Positions 43,088 through 58,565 of a stretch of 64,000 nucleotides of DNA are shown in pieces. The notes beneath the pieces are model-generated. The model was not told the origin of the DNA. It ran no database searches and saw nothing but the letters and a program-made list of their open reading frames with translations. A program made the position numbers and the translations under genes. Source of the DNA: Neophaeotheca triangularis (lineage: Eukaryota); contig BAAIJX010000012.1 of the NCBI GenBank assembly GCA_054600435.1, positions 434,001 to 498,000 of the forward strand, given 5' to 3'. Each line of letters begins with the position of its first letter. Positions within the stretch are counted from its first letter, which is position 1.

Positions 43088-46000
43088 TCAAGACCCGCGA
43101 CCACTGCTCCCACTAGCGGTGCTGCTCTCCCTCCCCAACATGCCCTGATCCCCACCCCTCTCCGAAGCCGGCGTCTGCGGCGTACTAGGATCCAAACTCA
43201 ACTGACTGCGAATGGTCAAAATCCACTCATGCTGCAACAACTCGGCCGCGGAGATGCGTTTGCTAGGATCGCGCTCAAAGCACTTGCGCACAAAATCCAA
43301 GCCCAGCTCGGACATTTGCTCCGTCGTGGGCATCGAGGGCGAGTTGCCTTGGGCAATGTTGTACATGATGGCGAATTCGTTGTCCAGAGCGGCCCAAGGC
43401 CGGGAGCCCGTGGCCATTTCCAAGATGACGCAGCCGAGGGACCAGACGTCCTCGGCGCCGAGGCGGGAGTGTGGTTTCTTGTCACCTTTGATGACTTCGG
43501 GGGACATGTACATGGGAGTGCCGGTGACGGAGCGCTGGCGACCGCGACCATCGGGGCCGTCGGCAACGATGGTTTTGCCCTGTTTGGCGATGACTTTTGC
43601 GGCGCCGAAGTCGACGAATTTGATGACGCCATTGTGGTCGAGGAGGATGTTTTCGGGCTTGATGTCGCGGTGTACGACGTTGGCTTCGTGGAGGTAACCT
43701 AGGCCTTCGAGCATCTGCAGCGCGTACACTTGGATGACCGTTTCGTCTTCGATGCGGCCGTGTTCGAGGAGTCCGGCTAGTGAGCCGCCCGAGCAGTATT
43801 CCATGAAGATGTAGACCTTATCTCTGTGGGGCTCGATGCCGTAGTATTGGACTACATTTGGGTGGTCGAGGACTTGCAGCACTCCCATTTCGTCGCGGAT
43901 TTGGTTGACGATGGTGGGGATCAATTTGGGGTCTTGGAGGCGGATTTCCTTTACTGCCATTAGATGTCCGCTGTCGAGGTTTATGGCCGCGTAGACGGAG
44001 CCGAAAGTGCCGCCGCCGACAAACTGCCCTTGCTGCCAGCGGAGATGTACGTTGCCTGCGCTGGCGGAGAGGTGGGTGAGGGCGCGGTCGGCATCGTTGG
44101 AGTCCTCCAGAACCCGACCCAGAGCTTGCCGTTCCGCTTCGCGATCTTTCCTTTGTTGGTCGATTTTCTCGAGCTGGTCGATCCATTGCATGCGCACGAT
44201 ACGGCTAGATTCTTCATCATCCTTGAGCCGGCTCACGTCGAGGCGGAGCTTCCCAACCATCGACTCAAGCCGCTGCTTTTCAGCTTGCGCGGCAACCGTC
44301 GACCTCGCTCCCATGATGTCGAAGTGGCTGATGAGCAAACTCATGCATCCCGCCACTTTAGCCCGCAGCGTGGCATACTCCTCTTCACTGATGCTCAAGA
44401 TGTTCTGACCCCGCGTCATCATCATGGCAAACTCCAACGCCACCACTGCCCACCTGAACGTCTTTCGGTCACTCGCTACGCAGTCGTCGCAGATGAAACT
44501 CACCCAGTCCAGCGCAAGATGCGTGAGCTTAAGCTGGTGCATAGCACGACGCTGCTGGTCCATGTAAATCGCTGAACGCTGTCCAAACTCGGTAGCGAAA
44601 GCAAAACAAGTCTGAATCAACTCCTGGCACTCAAGACCGGCAGTCTGCTTGCGAACAATCTCCACAGAGTCCATGATGGTGTTTGAGAGCTTGTAAGCCG
44701 TCTTGCGAATTTTGGTGAGCTCGTCGTTGACGCGAGGAAGGTTGGCGCGCTGCTCCACGAGCACGTTGAGTTCTATGCCTGTCACGGTGGCGAAGGTGAT
44801 GTTGGCGTTTGCCAGACGCTGCTGGCTGCCGTCTGCCACCAGTCTGATTCTACCAGTCTTCAGCGCGAGTTGCGGTTGCCGGAGTTCGCTGGACATGCGG
44901 GCACCTTGCCAATACGGAGGTTGTTCGGGTTTAAGGATGAGGACGTATGGGTTTGAGGGGTCGTCTGGGCTATCTTCTGCATGGTAACACGTTCCAAGCA
45001 TTGATTCAATGTCTTTAGGCCGGTTTTGCAAAGTCGGGCTGGCCAGCACGTATAGCCCGGTTTTCTCGGAAGGAGTCGCTGGTGTTTCCACCAAAAAGTG
45101 GCCGGAAACCGCCAGAGAGTGCAAAAGGTCATCGTAACTTTCGTTGTCGATGTTGATGTTGTATTCGGTGGCGTTCTCGAAACGCTGGCTCAAGACTTTG
45201 GAGAAACGGAAAATCTTACGCTGCCTAACACGCACCGAATCCAAGATGGCCTTGTAGCGCTTGTCCATCTCGGCGCCAGCGACTTCGTCCGGTCTCTTCT
45301 GGAGTTCCTTTTCGAAGTGACTGGTCAGTCGCACGAGAGATTTGGAGGTCAGGCTGGAGAACTGCTCCGCAACCTCAACATCACCCCCTTCTAGATGGCG
45401 TGCGAGCTCATTGCTGAAGTCCCATTCTTGTTCCAAGATTTCGGCCTCCTTGAACGTGTTCTTGTTGGCCATGAGTTTCCAGTTCAGCATCTTGAAGTAG
45501 AATTTGAGGGCATCGAGGACCACGCTGTCAAAAGCATCGTCGATGCACGGTGGCAGATCCCAGCCCGGTTCCGGCTGAGCTAGAACGATGTAAGCCTCTT
45601 TGATTTTGACGGCAAGCTTGAGTAAGATTTGGAACTGTAAAATCATCTGCTCGGCCATCATGACACCTTGTTGGGCTGGATCCTTCATCTTCTTCGCGTA
45701 CGACAAGCGCATGCGGATGATCTCTTGTATCAGTCGCGAAGGGAAGTTGATGAGGGTCAGCAACTCTTCAATATAAGGAGGCAGATGGCGGTCAGAAAAG
45801 GCCTCAGCATTGTCGATGAGGGTTGACTTGGCCTTGTGGATGACCGTGTTCACACCATTCAACAAGCTGTTGTCGCCCTGCAGAGACTTTAGCCCATCTT
45901 CTTTGAGGATACGATCGATGAAGGAACTCTCGTCGAAGAGATGACCCTGCTGTTCCCCCCTGGGTCGTGTCCGGGACTTGGAGAAGTCGAGCTCGACATT

Positions 46001-47254
46001 GCCGACCCAAGCCTGCAACACTCCCAGCTCCGTATTGATGAGTTCCGTAGTATTATGCCACGAAATCACCGCATCGCACATCTCCCTATACGCAGGAGAC
46101 GCTGCTCTGGGATTCGCACTCTCAAAAGCCGCTCTCGTCGGATAAAGTCCTTCAATCTTCTCAATCTTGTCGACAACCTCCCTAACCTGCTCCAGCGGCG
46201 ATTTGCCCACCTCCGTCTCGCCCTTGATCTCAAAAGCGATAATGCCCTCGATCGTCGTCTTGACCCTCGACCTTCCATCGTCAATCATCCGCTTCTGCGC
46301 CGCAATCGTCCGCCCACACGTCTTCGCCCTGACACCAATCCACACCTCATTCTTCAAGGAACTATCGCCAGCATTATCCGCACCACCAATCAGTCGCTTC
46401 TTCTCCTGCTTCACCACATCACCCGTAAGCACATTCGCCAGCATCGAGTGCCACTCCAACCTTTCACGGTTCGCCGGTATCTTCAGCTCCTCCACCGACG
46501 GCTCCATGTCCTCATTCCCATAATACAACAGCGTGTCCTGATCATAGGCGTCATTGTCCAAGTACTGAGCATTTGGGCTCGCCTCGTCCTCTTCAGAAGA
46601 CCCAGTACCGTAGTCCAAACTCGGCGTGCGGGGTTCGGAGTAAAAATCATTTTCCGGTGCGTCCTGCCGTATACGCTGGACGTAGGCTTTTTCTTGCGCG
46701 CGGTACTCGGCGTTGGGGTTGCGGCGGTTGCGGTTGGAGGAGTCGTTGCGTCGCCGGCTGGAATTGCTGTTCATAGAGTACTGGTGAGGGCGGCGGGGAG
46801 GGGCGTAGGCGTTTGAGGGTTGTCTGCTTGCGATGGGGCGGGCGGGTGCTCGTTGGGAGCTGTGGAGGCCGCTGGTTTGGAGTTGTTGCAGTTGTGGGGG
46901 CACAGGTTCGTAGGCAGCGCCTGGGAGGCTTCCGCCACCGCCGCCGCCGCCTCTGACGGAGGAGCGGAGGGGCGTAGAAGGCATGCCATAGCTGGTCGCT
47001 GGGGTCGAGGTTCCGTTTATACCATCTGCAGGGCTGAAGTCACGGGATGCGACGCCGCTGCCATAGTCCTCAAACTCGCCTTCGGAGGTGCCGGCGCCAG
47101 TGTCGGAGGAGTTGAATGTTTGCAGTTCGGGCCGGTCGATTCCATCTGGATACTCCATGATTGTCTCGATAGGAGCGTGGGGCGGAGGAATGGGGTCGTC
47201 AGGGGGTGACGAGCGAAGAGGGCGGGAGGTGGAAGGGGGTGGACTCGAGCCCAT
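43088..47254 (-). CDS. SSK2: HOG-pathway MAP kinase kinase kinase (Ssk2/Ssk22/Wis4/OS-4)
   Basis: RERLEWHSMLANVLTGDVV N-terminal domain; kinase motifs WQQGQFVGGGTFGSVY, MAVKEI, HRDIKPEN, DFG, GTPMYMSPE. Confidence 0.95.
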   Translation of the reverse strand: MGSSPPPSTSRPLRSSPPDDPIPPPHAPIETIMEYPDGIDRPELQTFNSSDTGAGTSEGEFEDYGSGVASRDFSPADGINGTSTPATSYGMPSTPLRSSVRGGGGGGGSLPGAAYEPVPPQLQQLQTSGLHSSQRAPARPIASRQPSNAYAPPRRPHQYSMNSNSSRRRNDSSNRNRRNPNAEYRAQEKAYVQRIRQDAPENDFYSEPRTPSLDYGTGSSEEDEASPNAQYLDNDAYDQDTLLYYGNEDMEPSVEELKIPANRERLEWHSMLANVLTGDVVKQEKKRLIGGADNAGDSSLKNEVWIGVRAKTCGRTIAAQKRMIDDGRSRVKTTIEGIIAFEIKGETEVGKSPLEQVREVVDKIEKIEGLYPTRAAFESANPRAASPAYREMCDAVISWHNTTELINTELGVLQAWVGNVELDFSKSRTRPRGEQQGHLFDESSFIDRILKEDGLKSLQGDNSLLNGVNTVIHKAKSTLIDNAEAFSDRHLPPYIEELLTLINFPSRLIQEIIRMRLSYAKKMKDPAQQGVMMAEQMILQFQILLKLAVKIKEAYIVLAQPEPGWDLPPCIDDAFDSVVLDALKFYFKMLNWKLMANKNTFKEAEILEQEWDFSNELARHLEGGDVEVAEQFSSLTSKSLVRLTSHFEKELQKRPDEVAGAEMDKRYKAILDSVRVRQRKIFRFSKVLSQRFENATEYNINIDNESYDDLLHSLAVSGHFLVETPATPSEKTGLYVLASPTLQNRPKDIESMLGTCYHAEDSPDDPSNPYVLILKPEQPPYWQGARMSSELRQPQLALKTGRIRLVADGSQQRLANANITFATVTGIELNVLVEQRANLPRVNDELTKIRKTAYKLSNTIMDSVEIVRKQTAGLECQELIQTCFAFATEFGQRSAIYMDQQRRAMHQLKLTHLALDWVSFICDDCVASDRKTFRWAVVALEFAMMMTRGQNILSISEEEYATLRAKVAGCMSLLISHFDIMGARSTVAAQAEKQRLESMVGKLRLDVSRLKDDEESSRIVRMQWIDQLEKIDQQRKDREAERQALGRVLEDSNDADRALTHLSASAGNVHLRWQQGQFVGGGTFGSVYAAINLDSGHLMAVKEIRLQDPKLIPTIVNQIRDEMGVLQVLDHPNVVQYYGIEPHRDKVYIFMEYCSGGSLAGLLEHGRIEDETVIQVYALQMLEGLGYLHEANVVHRDIKPENILLDHNGVIKFVDFGAAKVIAKQGKTIVADGPDGRGRQRSVTGTPMYMSPEVIKGDKKPHSRLGAEDVWSLGCVILEMATGSRPWAALDNEFAIMYNIAQGNSPSMPTTEQMSELGLDFVRKCFERDPSKRISAAELLQHEWILTIRSQLSLDPSTPQTPASERGGDQGMLGRESSTASGSSGRGS

Positions 47255-47963
47255 ACTGGCTGGGCTGGCTGCTGGCTACTGGCTGCTGCTGCTGCTGCTG
47301 CTGCACCGTCTTCTGCCCGCCCTAGCTGGGATGCTGCTTGCTCAAAAGTGGCTCATGCGAGAGTATCGGCCGCGGACGCCGACTCCGCGTTTGCTGACTT
47401 CTCAACTTTCTGACTGATTGGCTTTGATTAGATGGGACGCAAGGTGTGGCGGTGCGATGGAGAGTATATAGGATTATTGCAAGGAGTGTTTACACAGGAA
47501 GTGATGAATGTTACAACTGAAGATGAAAGACGGTACTTCTATAATCCATCAGCCGACACATAAAGCTACGGGAAATGAGTTGTCCGCGCGCGCCTCGCGC
47601 CACGCAAAAACTTGAAAAAGCCAGATCTTGACTTGTCGCTGCCGTCCGTACACTTCTTGGAAGTGCCTAGGTTTGCTTTGTTCGCCAAGCCTACAGAAAA
47701 GACATGCTCGAGTTGTAGTTAATCATAGGTCCTCGGATTTGAATACACAATTGTGAGTAGGTAAAACGGTCTATCTTTGTGTCATTATTACTACTGTGGA
47801 CAAACTAGCAGGTCTCATAAACTGCAGCGTGAGCAGTGCTGCACCAATACATTGACTGTCGTTCAAAATTCCGCAATACTAACCCCTTGTTCGCTATGCA
47901 ATACTGCCGTGACAATCAAACCTCCACAACCTAGGAAAACACCTTGCTCCAATGCACATGATA

Positions 47964-49339
47964 CTACCTCGAATAGCTGGGATGTAGCATCGCAGTGCTA
48001 TTCCTGCCCTGCTCTAGCTCGTACGCTTCTCTTTCACCCTCCGTCCGTGTCTCTCCGGAGTTCCAGGTACCTGTCCGGCCCTCTTCCATTCTTCCTGGAT
48101 CACTTCCGCTGCCATTCGAACCAAGCTCTGCTCTCTTCCCTTGCCTTATTTGGGTGCCCTTGCTGTAGGTCCCCTCCTCGCCGACGTAGTTTCCAACGCC
48201 GACAGCAATGCCCCAGGCGCGATTCCTGCTCCGTGGTCCCCAGGCCCAGCCGTTGGAGCGGTTGAGGGGCAAGTGGTACCATCTGAACGAAAACCAGGCC
48301 GTGATGATACCGATCAAACTACCAACGATAATGTCCGCGGCCCTGTGGTAAAAGTCCGTGTAACGCGAGGCGTTGATGTAGAGGGAGACAGCTATCGGAA
48401 GGAAAGCCGGGATGAGGAGGTAGTTGGGTGGGGCGGCAGCCTGATCACGAGGCGCAAGTGAGCGGAAAGTTTGGCTGCCGTTGGGGGAGTCGTCGTCGAA
48501 TTTGGGGCCGCCGTTGCCGTTGATGGCTGCGGCGTCTGGGACGTCTTCGTGGCGAGCAGAGTGAAGCGGGAGGAGTTCGGTTCCGGGTTGCGAGCGGAGG
48601 CCTTGGTAGGATGCGTTTTGGTGGGGTAGATAGGGGAGCTGGATCGAGAATTTGGAGCAGATAAATAAGGATAGGTAAAGGAGACCAGACCAGGAAAAGG
48701 AAGAGTGGCCGCTAGGAAAGCTGCGGAAGCCATCTCGTAGCATGTGTGCATCGGTTTGCGTGCAGATGTCGGCGGTGACAAGTACCCAACGCGGATCGAA
48801 TTGTTCTCCGTAGCGCGAGCCAGTGTAGTAATCACTGATATTGTCCACATCCGGCTCGCACCTGCTCAACAGATCAGGCCTGGGCACACCAAAGAGGTTC
48901 TTCAAGCCTTGTGTGATAAAGAAGGCCGTTGCGCATGATAGCGCAAGACCTGCCAATCCCTTTTCGAGCTCCCAGAGCTTGCGCTTGAAGTATTTCGCCT
49001 TGTCTTGATGTCGCAGCGCCGCTGGTCCGGGGACGAAGATGAGGACTATGAGGAAGATGATGACAGCCGGTGCGAGGAGTGCCACTACGCCGACTGCAGC
49101 GACCGAGACGGTGTTGGGACCATGTGGGAAGGCGATGCTGAGGTCGAGTAGGGAAAATGGCCGTCTAAAGGGTTCTACCCAGTTGAGGCCAGCGCCTATG
49201 GCGGCGATGATGCTGTGGAGGGCGGAGGTTAGTTTGCGCGCAGTAGAGATGCGCAATGAAGGTGGTGTGCTCACATGATTACAATCCAGTCGAATATATA
49301 AGACGCAATGAGCGACTTTGAGGGTATCTTGAAGTTCAT
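47964..49339 (-). CDS. PAP2-family lipid phosphate phosphatase (Dpp1/Lpp1-like); intron 49274-49213
   Basis: Exon 1 MNFKIPSKSLIASYIFDWIVI; motifs KNLFGVPRP (C1), SFPSGHSS (C2), SRYTDFYH...D (C3); several transmembrane segments. Confidence 0.9.
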
Positions 49340-50903
49340 GGCGGAAGGTCGCGCATCTACAGTGGGATGCAATTAGGCCCGATGTGAAGAGGGTGTAGGA
49401 AATAGAAGGGAAAGGAGGTTGCTAAGGGTGTGAGGAGAAGAGGAATGGAGAAGTTCCCACCATGGTAACAAAGCTGTGAAGCTGCTGAGACAAGGGCGTA
49501 TCGCTATGTACACGCCCAGGTCTTGGCCCCGCTCTGGCCGCGCGCTCCGTCAGCAGCGTAAACTTTGACGGAATGGTATGGGAAGACGTCAGCTCCTTGC
49601 AAGGCTGTGTTGTTCACCTCTTCTGCTTGGCTGGTTATAGTTTTGCTTACAAGATGGATTGCCAATCCGGGATCGTGCCGTCGGCGGGCATCAAGTCTGC
49701 TTGACAAGCATTTGGAGTACGCGGCTCGGATCTTTCTACTTTCAGATCCGGTGCTCGCGTTTGACTCGCATTTGTTATCAGATCGGAATGAGCTTTTTCA
49801 ATATGAAGGACAAATGTGCAAATAATTTACTCTCTTCCTGCCTTAAAGGCTACAGAGGAAGTGATGCTCTTTCGGACGGGTTCGGTTCTTCAACACCGCC
49901 TCCCTTGCTGCTTTTGTAGCGTAGCGCGCCGGTAGCAGTAAAAAGTCGTTGCCAGGAACGGACCATCCAAGCCAGAGGTCGGTGAGGTTGGGGAGATCGT
50001 CTGCGCCAGTAGGACCTGCTCCGATGAGGGCCCTTCCTGGTTTGAGACTTGTGAAGAAGCATGCTGTCTGTCTTCGTAGTTGAATAGTTGGCTCCCATCA
50101 TGGCCTCTGGCTTCGTGACCCAGTCTCCTGGTGACGTGTATGGAGGCCGCCGCGAACACTCCATGCTGCACCAAAGTGGAACATACGATGAATGATATAT
50201 TCTTCTAAGTATCCAGTTCGATCAGAAAAGGCGAAGTAGTTGAAGTTTTCCAGACACTGTACCTGGACGCACTTGTCCTACTTAGGGTTGGGGTTTGAGT
50301 GGCAGTCGACCGCACCTCTTCTTTGCTATTGCATCAGCAGCGACACTGCTATTCATTCAAACGTCGAAAGCGATCGTTCGATAGCCCGTATGTTAGAGCG
50401 TGAGAGTATGACGAGTGCCGGCGAAAAGGGGAAATGAGATTTCTACATTGGATCGTTCATTCGGTACAAATTGAGCTTTGCTGGCATCAATCGGCCATTA
50501 TCGACACAATTTTCACGTGCAACGATATGTTACATAGAAAACAAGGAGCCTCCGATAACTAGGTTTGCTGCAAGTTCACGTGTTGCACACCCACATTGAC
50601 TGCGAATGTGCAAAGGGTATTGTAGCGATCGAGCAATGTATAGGCTTCAGGAAAGCCAAAAAACAGTCCCGAGTGCTTTGATCGAGTCTTGCGTTTGAAT
50701 GGCTGTATTCATAACCTTTAGAGACACGTTTAATCCTATGTAGAGAAGATATAGACAGCAGGAAGCAAGATAGACGCAAGGACTATGTGACAAGCAAAAA
50801 ACCAGGGACTGAAGCGCAGCTGATCATGCTCAAGTTAGCCTAGGTAAGGATGCAAAAATGATTACGGGATTATGAAATAACAATGAAACATCAACAAAAA
50901 TGC

Positions 50904-50915: not shown

Positions 50916-51104
50916 TAGCTGAGAATGGTTTCGATCCATTGCCCTCCGGGTTATGAGCCCGGCGCTAAATTGTTTGTCAGGATACATAATTCCCATCTAG
51001 TCAGGGTTCGAACTGATGCATACCGCTTCCGCTGCGCCTATTTTGTCAAGAGTTAATTATAAGTGGAACAAATCAAGGATTTGGAGAGTACTAACCACTC
51101 AGCT
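50916..51104 (-). tRNA. Initiator tRNA-Met(CAT) split into exons 51104-51096, 51037-51024 and 50964-50916 by two GT-AG introns
   Basis: Joined exons read AGCTGAG TG GCGC AGCGGAA GCGC G CCGGG CTCATAA CCCGG AGGGC AATGG ATCGAAA CCATT CTCAGCT A (72 nt). All four stems are fully Watson-Crick paired, with A1:U72, G29-G31:C39-C41, A54/A60 and anticodon CAT at 50955-50953. Confidence 0.93.
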
Positions 51105-52915
51105 AGATGTGTGGTTTGATTGACACATTAGTACATCCCATTAATGTGAGTGATGATAGTGGAATTCGAGGATAATAATATATATCGGTTTTTTTGTAAT
51201 TCTCGCTCCACCTAGGTAATTGAAGTCATCTTGAGAGCCGAATTGCATACACCTCAACATCAAGGCTCAAGCTTCGTTGTAGAGGTCAGCAAGCATCAGG
51301 CTTACTGATAAGTTTAACGCGAAATTAACAAGTTATAGCGCTTATCCAGAACCATAGATAGTCCAGAGTCCTAAGCTTGTAATAAGTAGAAAACATTAGA
51401 AATTCATTATAGAAAAAAAAGGTGTAGGATCCCTTTCATTCTGTAAAAGCACAGATCTCTATACTAATAGTGCCTGTACACTTATTGTTATGATCGGATC
51501 GGCTACATGTAACTAAAGCAGAAACCCGATACAGCAAATCGCCTCACTGCGTCAAAAGAAGATCTCGCGAGATGTCGAGAAACATCAGCCATCGAAGAAA
51601 CAACCGAACGCCGCATCTCTCGCATTCGGTCGACATATGAAATCGACTTCAGAGGCAAAGTGCTCAAGAAAGCGTCGATGATTGACCCGAACTGACAATG
51701 GCACGGAAAAGCTCCCTCCTGACGAAAAAGCAGCTGATCATTGACCAAAGTGTATTCCCCAACGAGTATGCCTTGCTGTAATATTCGAAGCAGTAGAAGC
51801 GTATCGTTCCGGCCGATACTACTTGTCAACTAACGATTGCAGTCGGCATCAGCGTGCAGAGGACGTTTTCTGCCGGATTGACGGAAGCTGGCTTATCGAC
51901 TCTACGATGCTCTGGTACTCTTCAGCCATGTCTTCAATCCTGCCCATGCAGAAAACCGAGACCGTATACGCCCGAGCACAGAAAGTGATGCCGGGATCCA
52001 ACTCGAAGTAGGAGATTGTCCCTGATGATGCCTCGAGCAATGCCTTGATCCGACATTTGGAAGGCTTCTATAGTGGGCAGAGTAGGTCGGCTTTTCAAGC
52101 GAGTGAAAACAGAGATGATTGGGATGCCCTAACCAGCCGAGAAAATCTACACCCGGGCAAAAGACTACTCAAGCATGCTTGTAACCTTACAGTCCCGAGC
52201 CTTGCAGCGATCAAGTCATCTCGAGACTTTAAAGGCAGGAAGGGTAAGGGACATTCAGCGACCAACATCGTCAGAAGTATCTCTTGACCTCGCTTGAAAC
52301 TCGAAGTTCTTTATCCCTGGCATCCTTAAGCTGGATCTGGCGGCTCTGCGCTCGTTCAATGATCTCACAGCAGAGAAAAAAGCGGCTTTAGCTCCCAGCA
52401 TTGAAATTTAGTCCAGGCTCCATGAATCCCAAACCACCGAGCGCGGACGTGGCGGTGGAGGAGGGCTACGCCGCTGTTTTCCAGGTCGGGGACGATATTC
52501 CATCGACTGCGCGCCATTGAACTTCAGCAAGTCGTCAACTTCATTTCTCATCCCTACCCTCAACCACCGTGCCTTCCGTCAGCTCTGCCCGCCCCCCCTG
52601 ACTATTCCCCTCATAACCCCCTTGTGCAGCCCTCTCTAGTTCAAACGCGAATCCATCCTACTAGAAAATTCCCAAAAGAGCCGCTCCAGTCTCCTCTATC
52701 TGCACGATGAGCAAATCGACAAGACGCCAGACGTTAGAGTTGCGTAAAAGCAGAAGCGCCATGGGTTTTGCTACCATCGTCGCGAGAGGTGATGGCGAGG
52801 AACCCCGGCTCCGTGAGCAAAGGCATCTATCGTGCGCAAATGCCCGCCGTCCGTCGTCGGGTGGGAGATGATACAATCAAGATCCCACGAGCTCTTGCTC
52901 CCACGCCTACACGAA

Positions 52916-53964: not shown

Positions 53965-54734
53965 TCAATCCTCATCCGACGAATAGCCCCCGAGCCCAAG
54001 AGCAGGCTGCACAGTTGGCGAGGCCGACTTCTTCTCAAGAGACGTGACAGCAGGCTCAGCTTTTGAAGCAACCTCCTCGCCCTCCACAGAAGGTACTGCA
54101 GTCTCAATCTTCTCCGACGGCTTGAGCGGTGACTTGACCTCTTCCTCTTTCCCCTTCTCTGCCGTGCTAGTCCTTCTAATCTTCACACCACCAATCAATT
54201 CCCTCTCTTTACCCTTCTTCCTCTTCTTCGGCCCAACCTTCCACATGTCCTGCATACCATCCCCCTCTGGCGCCACCTCAACCGGGCCCTCTCTCAAAGC
54301 AGCTTTCTCAGCCTCGTCCCTCTGCTGGCGAAAGAGTGCCAGATCAGCCGCAGTCTGCGCTTTGACCTTTCTAGCCTCCTCCTCTTGCTTAGCAGCAGTA
54401 GCATTCAAGAAATCAATCTCAGCATCATCGAGCGTGGGAAATTGATTCTTCAACTTTGCTGCTTCCTCAAAAGCTTCTTGCTTGGCGGCTTAAGGCACCT
54501 CTGACTCGTCAGTCACGCACAAATGCCCTACTTACTACTCGGTCGAAATCTCAAGTCACCTTTGTTCGCTTGCAGCGTCTCGTACAGCGAAGGGCCATTG
54601 CTGCCTTGCTGCTCGCTTTGGAGCTTCTCCCTCTGTTTCTGCTCGACTTCACGCTCGGCTTTGGACCAAGCTTGGTCGCGCTCAGTCGGGGCCTCGTCGG
54701 TGCCGCCGGAGACGAAGCGTGATGTGGAAGGCAT
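53965..54734 (-). CDS. FAM192A/PSME3IP1/NIP30 (yeast Fyv6) family protein; intron 54559-54489
   Basis: SRFVSGG...SLYETLQANK|AAKQEAFEEAAKLKNQFPTLDDAEIDFL...LALFRQQ; C-terminal LGLGGYSSDED. Confidence 0.88.
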
Positions 54735-55756: not shown

Positions 55757-56895
55757 ATGGCAAAGAACTGGACCAAGGAGTCGTTCACTCTGAACACTGT
55801 ACGTTTCCCGCCCTCGCCACCAACTCCTCCATCAACATCATCGACATGATCATCTTCACCACCACCACCACAAATGGAATATCGAATACTAACTACAACT
55901 TCAACAACAGGGCGCTAAGATCCCCGCCGTTGGTCTTGGTACCTGGCAATCCGCCCCCAACGAGGTTCGCACCGCCGTCAAGGCTGCCCTCGACGCTGGC
56001 TACCGCCACATTGACACTGCCCTCGCCTACGGCAACGAGCACGAGGTCGGCCAGGGTATCAAGGACTCTGGTGTCCCCCGTGAGGAGATCTGGATCACCA
56101 CCAAGCTCGACAACCCATGGCACAAGCACGTCGAGGAGGGCATCACCTCCTCCCTCAAGTCCCTCGGCACCGACTACGTTGACCTCTACCTCATGCACTG
56201 GCCTTCTTCCACCGACCCCGAGGACTTGAAGAAGCACTACCCCGACTGGGACTGTAAGTGGAGAAATTAAGCCCATGATTAATTCATTCGAGTTTTTACT
56301 AACTTGTAATTTTTCAGTCGTCAAGACATGGGAGCAGATGCAGAAGATTGGTAGCACCCGCGCCAGGAACATTGGTGTTTCCAACTTCGCCATCAAGAAC
56401 TTGGAGAAGCTCCTCTCGGACTCCACCTGCAAGACTGTCCCCGCCGTCAACCAGGTCGAGCTCCACCCCAACAACCCCAGCCCTAAGCTCGTCGACTTCT
56501 GCAAGGAGAAGAACATCCACTGCACCGCCTACTCCTGCCTCGGCTCCACCAACAGCCCTCTCGCAAAGGACGCCACTCTCCTCGAGATGGCCAAGAGCAA
56601 GGACAAGACTCCCGCTCAGGTTCTGTAAGTCGAGCCACTGCCAGCGAAATTATACAAACGCAACACCCAGCTAACAATATACCCCTTTAACAGCCTCATG
56701 TGGGGTCTCCAGCGCGGTACCTCTGTCATCCCCAAGTCCGTCACCGCTTCCAGGATAGAGGCCAACTACCAGCTCGACGGCTGGTCGCTCACCGACGACG
56801 AGATGAAGAAGCTGTCTGGCTTGCCCGACCGCTTCAAGGTCTGCGGTGACGGCTGGCTCCCCGTCAAGGTCTTCTTCGGTGACGACGAGTACTAG
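55757..56895 (+). CDS. Aldo-keto reductase (Gcy1/Ypr1/glycerol dehydrogenase-like); introns 55799-55910, 56254-56317, 56625-56693
   Basis: FTLNT|GAKIPAVGLGTWQ, GYRHIDTALAYGNE, ITTKL, DLYLMHWP, IGVSNF, NQVELHP, VIPKS. Confidence 0.95.
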
Positions 56896-57167: not shown

Positions 57168-58565
57168 CTACAACTTCGAAGACCCCTTCGGCCTCTCCAA
57201 CTCCTTCGTCTTACGTTCATAATTCTTCGCAAGCTGCCTAACCATCAAATCAAGCATGACATCCTCAGAACCACCCCTACAAACAAACCCAGTTAGCATC
57301 ACGCCCAACACGATAAAAAGGCCAAGTACTCACGGCACGCGATTTCCATTAACCTCCCTCCACATCCTCTCAGCAATCTCCCCCTTACCGGTCCTCGTAA
57401 ACCCATTGCCGCCAAAAAGCAAAACCGCACAATCCGCACACTCCTTCAAAACAATCCCGGCCTGCGCTTTCGCCGCCGCCGTCAAACCCCCCAATTCCCG
57501 ATCCCCCTCCTCTTTGCCCATGACACTCATCTGGAAGACAAACTGCTCCACCCACGCCCACAAGCTCTCAACCAACACCCCGGCCTTGGCCAGCCGATGC
57601 CGCACCACCGGCTGCTCCATCAACTTCTTCCCAAAAGCCTCGCGCTGCAGCACGTAAGCAAAAGCCGCCGAGAGCGCCACTCTCGCCTGCCGCGTGCATC
57701 CGATCGCTATCGTGAGCCGCTCGTGGTTGAAATTCGTCATGATGTAGCGCATGCCCTGGCCCTCGAGCCCGATTAAATTCGTCGCGGGCACTTTGACCTC
57801 GTCCAGCTCCATGTACGTCGTTCCCGCCGAGATTTGCCCCGAGACTTTCAGCCGTCGCATTTCCACGCCCGGCGTGTCCTTTAGCGGCACCAGGAGGAGG
57901 GATAGCCCGGCGGCGCCGCTGTTCTCGTCGCCCGTGCGTACCGCCATGGTGGCGTAGTGGGACCAGATGCCGTTGGTGATCCATTTCTTCGCGCCGTTGA
58001 CGACGTAGTGTTTGCCGTCTGGGGTTTTGGTGGCGGTGGTGCGGATGTTGGCGACGTCGCTGCCGGCGTCGGGCTCGGTGATGGCGATGCAGGCGCGTTT
58101 GCGGCCCGTGAGCAAGTCCGGCAGGTATTGGTCTTGGAGTTGCTGGGAGCCGAATTTGAGGATCGGGGGCACGCCGAAGGCCACGCCGGTCGTCAGACTG
58201 CCGCTGGGGCCCGCGAGACCGGAGCGCAGCATTTCGTCCGTGTAGATGAGGTTGTGGAAGGGGGTGAAGTCTTCGACTTTGACCGTGGCCAGGAGGGTGT
58301 GGATTCCGTTTTTCTTGAGAGCCGTCACGGGCAGGGGAGCGGGCAGGGCTGGGATTAGCATGTTGTGTTTTGCAAAGGTCTCGAAGACGTGGGGCGGGAC
58401 GGTTTCCTCGCGTTCCCAGTCAAAGGCGTGGGGGGTTAGGTGTTCGCCTATGAAGGCGCGGCAGGCTTTTTGCCATTGCCGCAGTTCTGGAGTGTAGTAG
58501 GGGGAGGGTAGACCGGAGAGATAGGGGGGCTCGCTGAAGGGGACTGGGGTTGGGTTGCCTGTCAT
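57168..58565 (-). CDS. Acyl-CoA dehydrogenase with peroxisomal PTS1 (-SKL); intron 57333-57277
   Basis: Start MTGNPTPVPFSEP; CIAITEPDAGSDVA, NGAKKWITNG, NFNHER, QREAFGKKL; spliced end RVP|GGSEDVMLDL...KGSSKL*. Confidence 0.92.

Follow-up and report, generated by a model that had tools for sequence, protein, structure and literature searches.

The window analysed here is a 64-kb stretch of Neophaeotheca triangularis DNA (contig BAAIJX010000012.1), and the subject of this report is a transfer RNA (tRNA) gene within it that is interrupted twice. Coordinates of the gene and its parts are window positions on the minus strand throughout. The gene occupies 51104-50916, a total of 189 nucleotides (nt), of which 72 nt are left once two GT..AG segments of 58 and 59 nt are taken out. 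When both segments are removed computationally, ARAGORN reads the remainder as a tRNA-Met(CAT) of 72 bases in which all four stems are perfect. When just one segment is removed, ARAGORN returns no tRNA, and in the raw 64-kb window no tRNA is found either by ARAGORN or by Rfam at its gathering thresholds. Initiator tRNA-Met is distinguished by an A1:U72 pair, by three G:C pairs at the foot of the anticodon stem, and by A54 together with A60. These marks are present in the computed cloverleaf as A1:U72, ggg/ccc beside the anticodon loop, and a T-loop that reads ATCGAAA and supplies A54 and A60. A54 is also named as an initiator mark in PMC3978253. By its sequence anatomy, 51104-50916 is a eukaryotic initiator tRNA-Met gene.

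The gene is divided into three exons and two introns. Exon 1 (51104-51096, 9 nt, AGCTGAGTG) provides tRNA positions 1-9, exon 2 (51037-51024, 14 nt) provides positions 10-24 in the standard numbering, with position 17 absent, and exon 3 (50964-50916, 49 nt) provides positions 25-73. Intron 1 (51095-51038) is 58 nt long with a guanine-plus-cytosine (GC) content of 31%; it reads GTTAGT..TTGAC..TAG and separates tRNA positions 9 and 10. Intron 2 (51023-50965) is 59 nt long with 39% GC, lies between positions 24 and 25, and reads GTATGC..CTGAC..CTGAC..TAG. The likeness between the two introns is confined to their branch regions, and no further copies of either were found in the window or in related loci, so that nothing points to their having arisen as a repeat or "introner". 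The two CTGAC motifs of intron 2 (51004-51000 and 50980-50976) are each preceded by A[CT]CC. In the intron end of a paralogue from a related sequencing run, which is introduced below, CTGAC occurs just once, and intron 2 of the window looks like that form with an internal duplication of approximately 24 nt.

A preliminary description of this DNA had reported an A-box cut by intron 1, one B-box inside intron 2 and another in an exon, and a run of seven T residues (T7) after the gene, and all of these are present. The canonical A-box is interrupted as TG/GCGCAGCGG, where the slash marks the intron between tRNA positions 9 and 10. In the DNA this split costs a single base (T8), and the terminal AG of intron 1 restores AGGCGCAGCGG. 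The resulting canonical remnant (51039-51029), which is made of the intron 1 AG plus exon 2, has one mismatch to TRGYNNARNGG, leaving 10/11 positions intact, and two mismatches to TRGCNNAGTGG. The B-box motif GWTCRANNC is matched by GTTCGAACC inside intron 2 (51013-51005) and by GATCGAAAC in the exon (50936-50928). Taken at greater length, the intronic B-box-like sequence is AGTTCGAACCC (51014-51004), with one mismatch to GGTTCGANNCC, and the T-loop B-box is GGATCGAAACC (50937-50927), which has the initiator form with A54 and A60 and likewise one mismatch to the consensus. The core of the intronic box, GTTCGAAC (51013-51006), is an 8-nt palindrome; the paralogue version, GTTCGAAT, is not palindromic and the palindrome is therefore probably incidental.

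A second A-box, not mentioned in the preliminary description, overlaps exon 1. This sequence, TAGCTGAGTGG (51105-51095), takes in leader base -1, the whole of exon 1 and the G with which intron 1 opens, and it matches TRGCNNAGTGG at 11/11 positions. Only two perfect matches to that consensus occur on both strands of the window. The other one, at 57950-57960, is a chance hit in GC-rich, coding-like DNA. In four related genes that lack intron 1 (L001-L004, described below), the site corresponding to the exon-1 A-box has 2-3 mismatches, and the canonical A-box has 1 mismatch. With each gap measured from the last base of the A-box up to the B-box, the exon-1 A-box lies 80 nt from the intronic box and 157 nt from the T-loop box, and the canonical remnant lies 14 nt and 91 nt from the same two boxes. 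In the three related genes whose T-loop box was scored (L001, L003 and L004), the gap from the canonical A-box to the T-loop box is 82-85 nt. A spacing of 30-90 bp is given as normal for tRNA genes and one of approximately 200 bp for yeast U6 in PMC5855946.

The gene is followed, 5 nt past the end of the tRNA, by a terminator-like site (50910-50896) that comprises the T7 run (50910-50904), GCA, and a run of five T residues (T5; 50900-50896). There is no run of four T residues (T4) anywhere in the 189-nt gene, and T runs reach 3 at most in either intron. The absence of T4 from the introns, to which the preliminary description had drawn attention, stands as a fact, but it is no more than chance would produce. 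In chance tests that shuffled each intron 20,000 times and kept its splice ends in place, T4 was missing from both introns with P=0.46 and from all six introns examined, that is, these two and those of L001-L004, with P=0.13. An in-window control found T4 in one of five candidate protein-gene introns, each with open reading frames on both sides, some of them doubtful and together too few to use. Freedom from T4 is necessary for such introns and is present here, and it is no sign of adaptation. Among ordinary introns of the window, that of the aldo-keto reductase gene (56254-56317, plus strand, 64 nt, GTAAGT..TACTAAC..CAG) holds two T5 runs, which shows that ordinary introns here can carry the stop signals of RNA polymerase III (Pol III).

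An RNA counterpart of the gene exists as a metatranscriptome contig (X4) that corresponds to 51124-50907. It is 218 nt long, is unspliced, contains both introns, and has one difference from the window. Its first base is G51124, 20 nt above the mature 5' end, and its last is 50907, the fourth T of the T7 run. The contig has no loose ends, and DNA runs continue beyond both of its ends. In extent it resembles a Pol III primary transcript, which is a weak hint as to its origin. The stretch between G51124, the contig's first base, and the gene is a putative 5' leader of 20 nt (51124-51105). In an isolate-type sequencing run (X3), the leader (51105-51124) carries 0 changes versus 4 substitutions and 1 insertion in the adjoining 51125-51144, a small hint that agrees with a start near 51124. 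The beginning of the leader, GTCAATCAAAC (51122-51114), contains two CAA triplets, which directly follow the base at which the contig starts; CAA motifs mark the start sites of plant tRNA genes. A further RNA-library contig of 161 nt (X20) has only exon 3 in common with the gene and carries intron-like and flanking sequence of its own. It comes from another organism and is silent on splicing at this locus.

These positions bear on the question of which A-box could set the start. Measured from the 5' end of the RNA contig, the exon-1 A-box begins 19 nt downstream and the canonical remnant lies 85 nt downstream. In a type 2 Pol III promoter the A-box lies approximately 10-20 nt downstream of the start site, and an A-box 85 nt below the start is by this geometry too far away to set it. 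If the canonical A-box directed initiation, transcription would begin within intron 1 and exon 1 would be lost. Because intron 1 places the canonical A-box 58 nt further downstream, the second A-box at 51105-51095 is the element that would most likely set the start site. Moreover, the exon-1 A-box and the intronic box form the sole pair that combines normal spacing with a start above exon 1, and this is the best argument for a re-wired promoter. A shifted A-box is plausible at this gene, and the exon-1 match makes a rearranged promoter plausible as well.

Relatives of the gene were sought by scanning metagenome contigs for exon 2 plus GT, followed 70-100 nt on by GATCGAAAC, which gave five loci (L001-L005). 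Four of the five, L001-L004, are initiator tRNA genes with differing acceptor stems, no intron 1, and one intron at the identical 24/25 site. Their exons are intact and fold properly, their introns are 50-53 nt long and read GT[AT]AGT..CTAAY..YAG, and a T5-T7 run follows within 8-26 nt after each gene. TATATA-like runs stand 25-45 nt above the tRNA 5' end in L002 and L004, much nearer to the gene than the 68-80 nt found in the window, and none is seen in L001. The fifth match, L005, is a chance hit. Scanning of prokaryote genome contigs gave 0 matches to the intron-1 pattern and 2 matches to the intron-2 pattern, both of which are chance hits in bacterial metagenome-assembled genomes with no tRNA-like parse; the viral contigs scanned gave 0 matches. 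The window gene brings the number of distinct sequence lineages with an initiator tRNA gene of this kind, carrying one or two introns, to at least five.

Closer relatives retain both introns and reveal how the locus changes. An air-metagenome contig (X2) has 2 differences over 701 nt, one of which replaces TAG by CAG at the 3' site of intron 2. In the isolate-type run X3, which keeps both introns, changes affect 0/72 exon positions versus 12/117 intron positions (Fisher p=0.004), and 23/512 positions of the flank. Here, intron 1 has 6 substitutions and 1 insertion. Exons 1 and 2 show no change in X2, X3 or X4, nor does exon 3 in X2 or X3. The 5' splice sites of both introns are the same in X3 as in the window, and the 3' site of intron 2 is changed from TAG to CAG in X3 just as it is in X2. 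In X3 and X4, a change at 51056 in intron 1 converts ATTAAC into ACTAAC, a textbook branch site. The changes seen in relatives keep or improve the splice signals.

Three further short contigs of X3 have exon 3 in common but different flanks, so that there are at least two more loci with exon 3. At one of these extra loci, intron-like sequence lies directly upstream of exon 3. The X3 paralogue leaves exon 3 one base later than the window does, and the organism represented by X20 leaves it one base earlier, with 29-30 letters visible in each case. This would fit introns placed at 25/26 and 23/24, respectively, instead of 24/25, or the use of an AAG 3' site.

All six introns, the two here and those of L001-L004, begin with GT, carry a CTRAY-like branch sequence 8-20 nt before their end, finish with YAG, and are 50-59 nt long. 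The consensus for U2-type GT-AG introns is a GTRNGY-like 5' hexamer, a CTRAY-like branch near the 3' end, and YAG. The introns are placed not at 37/38 but at 9/10 and 24/25. No bulge-helix-bulge is present at either junction in the minimum-energy fold of the 218-nt precursor, a result of the fold itself, as no dedicated search model was run. The GT, branch and YAG signals, the sites other than 37/38, the lack of a bulge-helix-bulge and the respected splice signals make spliceosomal removal the natural inference, and judged from these features the introns would most likely be removed by the spliceosome.

The preliminary description had also argued for a live gene, and that view is upheld by evidence other than its own, namely exons that are frozen next to introns that drift, splice signals that are kept, and an RNA library that contains the whole unit as an unspliced contig. 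It is very probable that the gene is alive and that Pol III transcribes it.

The gene sits in a gap of 45% GC between genes of 55% GC. On one side are reading frames for a MEKK4/Ssk2-like protein kinase (43088-47275, minus strand) and a PAP2 phosphatase (47964-49421, minus strand), and on the other are those for a Fyv6/FAM192A-like protein (53965-54489, minus strand) and the first exon of the aldo-keto reductase (55893-56270, plus strand). All four neighbours are ordinary eukaryotic genes. Judged by gene style alone, the source is an ascomycete-like eukaryote.

The explanation that best accounts for the whole is a live nuclear initiator tRNA gene transcribed by Pol III, with two introns of spliceosomal type and a shifted A-box, and we regard it as somewhat more probable than its negation. 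According to this model, Pol III would make a precursor of approximately 218 nt that runs from about G51124 to the first U residues of the T7 run, with both introns inside. The exon-1 A-box (51105-51095) would set the start, 19 nt above it, and the B-box contact of TFIIIC would be made either with the motif in intron 2, at a gap of 80 that falls within 30-90, or with the T-loop box, at a gap of 157. Removal of the introns, most likely by the spliceosome, would follow, and trimming of the ends would give a normal 72-nt cloverleaf. In this sequence of events, we infer from the letters and the contigs which polymerase acts and where it starts, that either box is used, and that splicing takes place.

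Several observations weigh against this model and set the limits within which it can be held. No spliced joint was seen in the four aligned runs; these consist of contigs throughout, and the negative does not in itself count against splicing. For RNA there is a single contig, from one study and with a depth of 5.8; as a contig it is strandless, and its ends may have been set by coverage. The exon-1 A-box is in part forced by the tRNA, which dictates A1, G2 and C3, T8 and G9, and by the G of the GT. This leaves approximately three free positions (base -1, 6 and 7), for which a chance match would be expected about once in 64 by estimate, and the match was noticed post hoc. Furthermore, the comparison of that site is between one lineage with intron 1 and four without it. 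The canonical remnant and the T-loop box, at a gap of 91, are also a plausible TFIIIC site, with a start inside intron 1. As for the intronic B-box, it is absent from all four of the distant genes that share intron 2, each of which is without intron 1. The introns of the orthologue and the paralogue are still approximately 85-90% alike to those of the window, and recent common descent would explain why the box is kept in both.

The preliminary description had gone further and proposed that the introns have adapted to Pol III. In full, the claim would be that selection maintains the B-box of intron 2 as a working TFIIIC site and that T runs have been purged. This is a possible reading, although we hold it to be distinctly less than even. 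The motif GWTCRANNC arose in 1.0% of the shuffles of intron 2 and in 0.75% of those of intron 1, a nominally unusual outcome for a motif that was picked after looking, and GTTCGAANCC is unique in the window, where it occurs once on both strands, here, versus 0.61 expected. The motif stands 80 nt after the exon-1 A-box, within the 30-90 range, versus 157 nt for the T-loop box. In X3 the intronic box has one change, G to A at 51009, and still fits the consensus. In the paralogue intron of X3, seen as a loose end behind 50963, GTTCGAATC lies directly before CTGAC, as in intron 2 of the window, and its single change falls on a degenerate position, like that of X3. The motif is missing exactly from the four genes without intron 1, which would not need it, and S. 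pombe U6, taken up below, offers a precedent.

Against adaptation, the absence of T4 is what chance predicts for two introns as well as for six, and the rough control from protein-gene introns, with T4 in only one of five candidates, points the same way. Two changes that both preserve the consensus have a chance of approximately 0.1 by estimate, and introns that remain 85-90% alike have had no time yet to drift. In addition, the motif belongs to one lineage only. Taken together, adaptation of the introns to Pol III is not borne out, as the missing T4 is accounted for by chance, retention of the B-box by shared descent, and the box is lacking in 4/4 distant genes. The idea that the motif would be kept in orthologous introns while the rest drifts holds to the extent that it is kept in one orthologue and one paralogue; the similarity of those introns means that the drift part of it does not. 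Function of the intronic B-box is put at clearly under an even chance, and of the re-wired promoter that the preliminary description envisaged, the part that gains support comes from the exon-1 A-box, while the part that concerns the intronic B-box is unproven.

A simpler view keeps Pol III and dispenses with re-wiring. Here, the ordinary T-loop B-box would act with either A-box or with upstream elements, and the exon-1 A-box and the intronic B-box would be coincidences. The T-loop box is indeed intact, the canonical A-box is 10/11 intact in the DNA against the looser consensus, and yeast U6 works with approximately 200 bp between its blocks (PMC5855946). Both motif matches were found after looking, and that in exon 1 is partly forced by conserved tRNA bases. 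This view nevertheless has to accept a start that falls in intron 1 when the canonical A-box is used, with exon 1 lost, and an RNA contig that begins 85 nt above that box, and it leaves the perfect match from -1 to +10 confined to the one gene that has intron 1. We consider it unlikely, at roughly one chance in four.

Transcription by RNA polymerase II (Pol II) from an upstream TATATA element, with co-transcriptional removal of the introns by the spliceosome and excision of the tRNA from a longer RNA, is far less probable. The element that the preliminary description had named as a basis for this alternative is present as a TATA-like run, TATATATTATTAT (51184-51172), which is 48-60 nt above the 5' end of the RNA contig and 68-80 nt above the mature 5' end. 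It is unchanged in X3 while 51185-51188 and 51170 beside it have changed, in a stretch too short for significance. Spliceosomal splicing is normally coupled to Pol II, which counts in favour of this route. In Trypanosoma brucei, moreover, tRNA-Sec is made by Pol II, as reported in PMC2943599. The alternative is weakened by the RNA contig, which stops four T residues into the T7 run, starts 55-60 nt below the TATATA and has nothing further on either side. It is weakened further by the T7 and T5 runs right after the tRNA, which are the usual Pol III stop and have T5-T7 counterparts in all four related genes.

Lastly, a dead relic, or removal of the segments by the tRNA splicing endonuclease and ligase, is very improbable, for although no spliced RNA was seen in the contigs, the locus goes unrecognised by ARAGORN and Rfam, and the eukaryotic tRNA introns described in one review are all removed by the endonuclease (PMC10275265), the exons are frozen while the introns drift, the intron site recurs in four other lineages, in which intact exons give proper folds, neither intron occupies 37/38, no bulge-helix-bulge forms at either junction of the folded precursor, and all six introns have GT, a CTRAY-like branch, YAG and the lengths of fungal introns.

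Returning to the Pol III-transcribed gene with a shifted A-box, a wider proposal can be built upon it. In a group of fungi, the initiator tRNA would come only from genes that need the spliceosome, and where a second intron displaced the A-box, the promoter would have been rebuilt from exon 1 plus the G of the 5' splice site together with an intronic B-box. Under this proposal, which we advance tentatively and rate somewhat below even, the precursor could adopt the tRNA fold only after the splicing of one or two mRNA-type introns. That an initiator tRNA seems to need the spliceosome is the larger and the more remarkable point.

If true, this would be the first case of a tRNA that needs the spliceosome in order to mature, and the start of all translation would be tied to splicing capacity. 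The spliceosome would work routinely on a Pol III transcript that is unrelated to splicing, and the genes would offer a natural system for learning how TFIIIC copes with boxes that introns have moved. It would also follow that standard tRNA finders miss an essential gene, which could explain initiator tRNAs that appear to be "missing" from annotations.

Comparison with known systems places the gene among several that resemble it in part. Ordinary initiator tRNA-Met genes share its mature sequence, all of the initiator marks, the initiator form of the T-loop B-box and the T-run terminator; to our knowledge, ordinary initiator tRNA genes are uninterrupted. Introns in eukaryotic tRNA genes are described as a class apart from those of mRNAs, lying in the anticodon loop, at one position, and removed by an endonuclease and a ligase, and the available part of a large recent review of tRNA processing describes endonuclease splicing only (PMC10275265). 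Our literature search found no paper on spliceosomal introns in tRNA genes; most subscription journals lie outside the coverage of that search, and a precedent may exist.

Nuclear tRNA genes that are interrupted outside 37/38 are known from Cyanidioschyzon merolae and from nucleomorphs, and are in this respect like the gene described here. Their introns have a bulge-helix-bulge and are processed by the tRNA endonuclease (PMC3978253), unlike the introns here, which begin with GT and end with AG, carry branch sites and lack a fold of that kind. Some of the interruptions in those genes fall within the internal promoter, and nucleomorph tRNA introns cut the promoter boxes.

Among Pol III genes, an mRNA-type intron has been described for fungal U6 (PMC5855946). 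The U6 gene of S. pombe has its B block inside such an intron (Tani and Ohshima 1989; Frendewey et al. 1990, cited in PMC5855946), and the preliminary description was correct in placing this B-box in a spliceosomal intron. The resemblance is that of a small structured RNA gene of Pol III type with an mRNA-type intron that holds a B-box match and with a TATA-like element upstream. The gene here differs in that its product is a tRNA, that it has two introns, that there is an additional, ordinary B-box in the T-loop, and that the intronic box is a candidate. The introns of U6 are usually explained by reverse splicing at the catalytic centre of the spliceosome. The RNA here is a tRNA and not a spliceosome component, so that this explanation is inapplicable.

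The SNR6 gene of S. cerevisiae is likewise an example of a type 2 promoter with unusual geometry, having a TATA element, an internal A block and a B block approximately 200 bp away (PMC5855946). SNR6 is intronless and its B block lies past the terminator, whereas here it is the introns that cause the odd spacing of the boxes.

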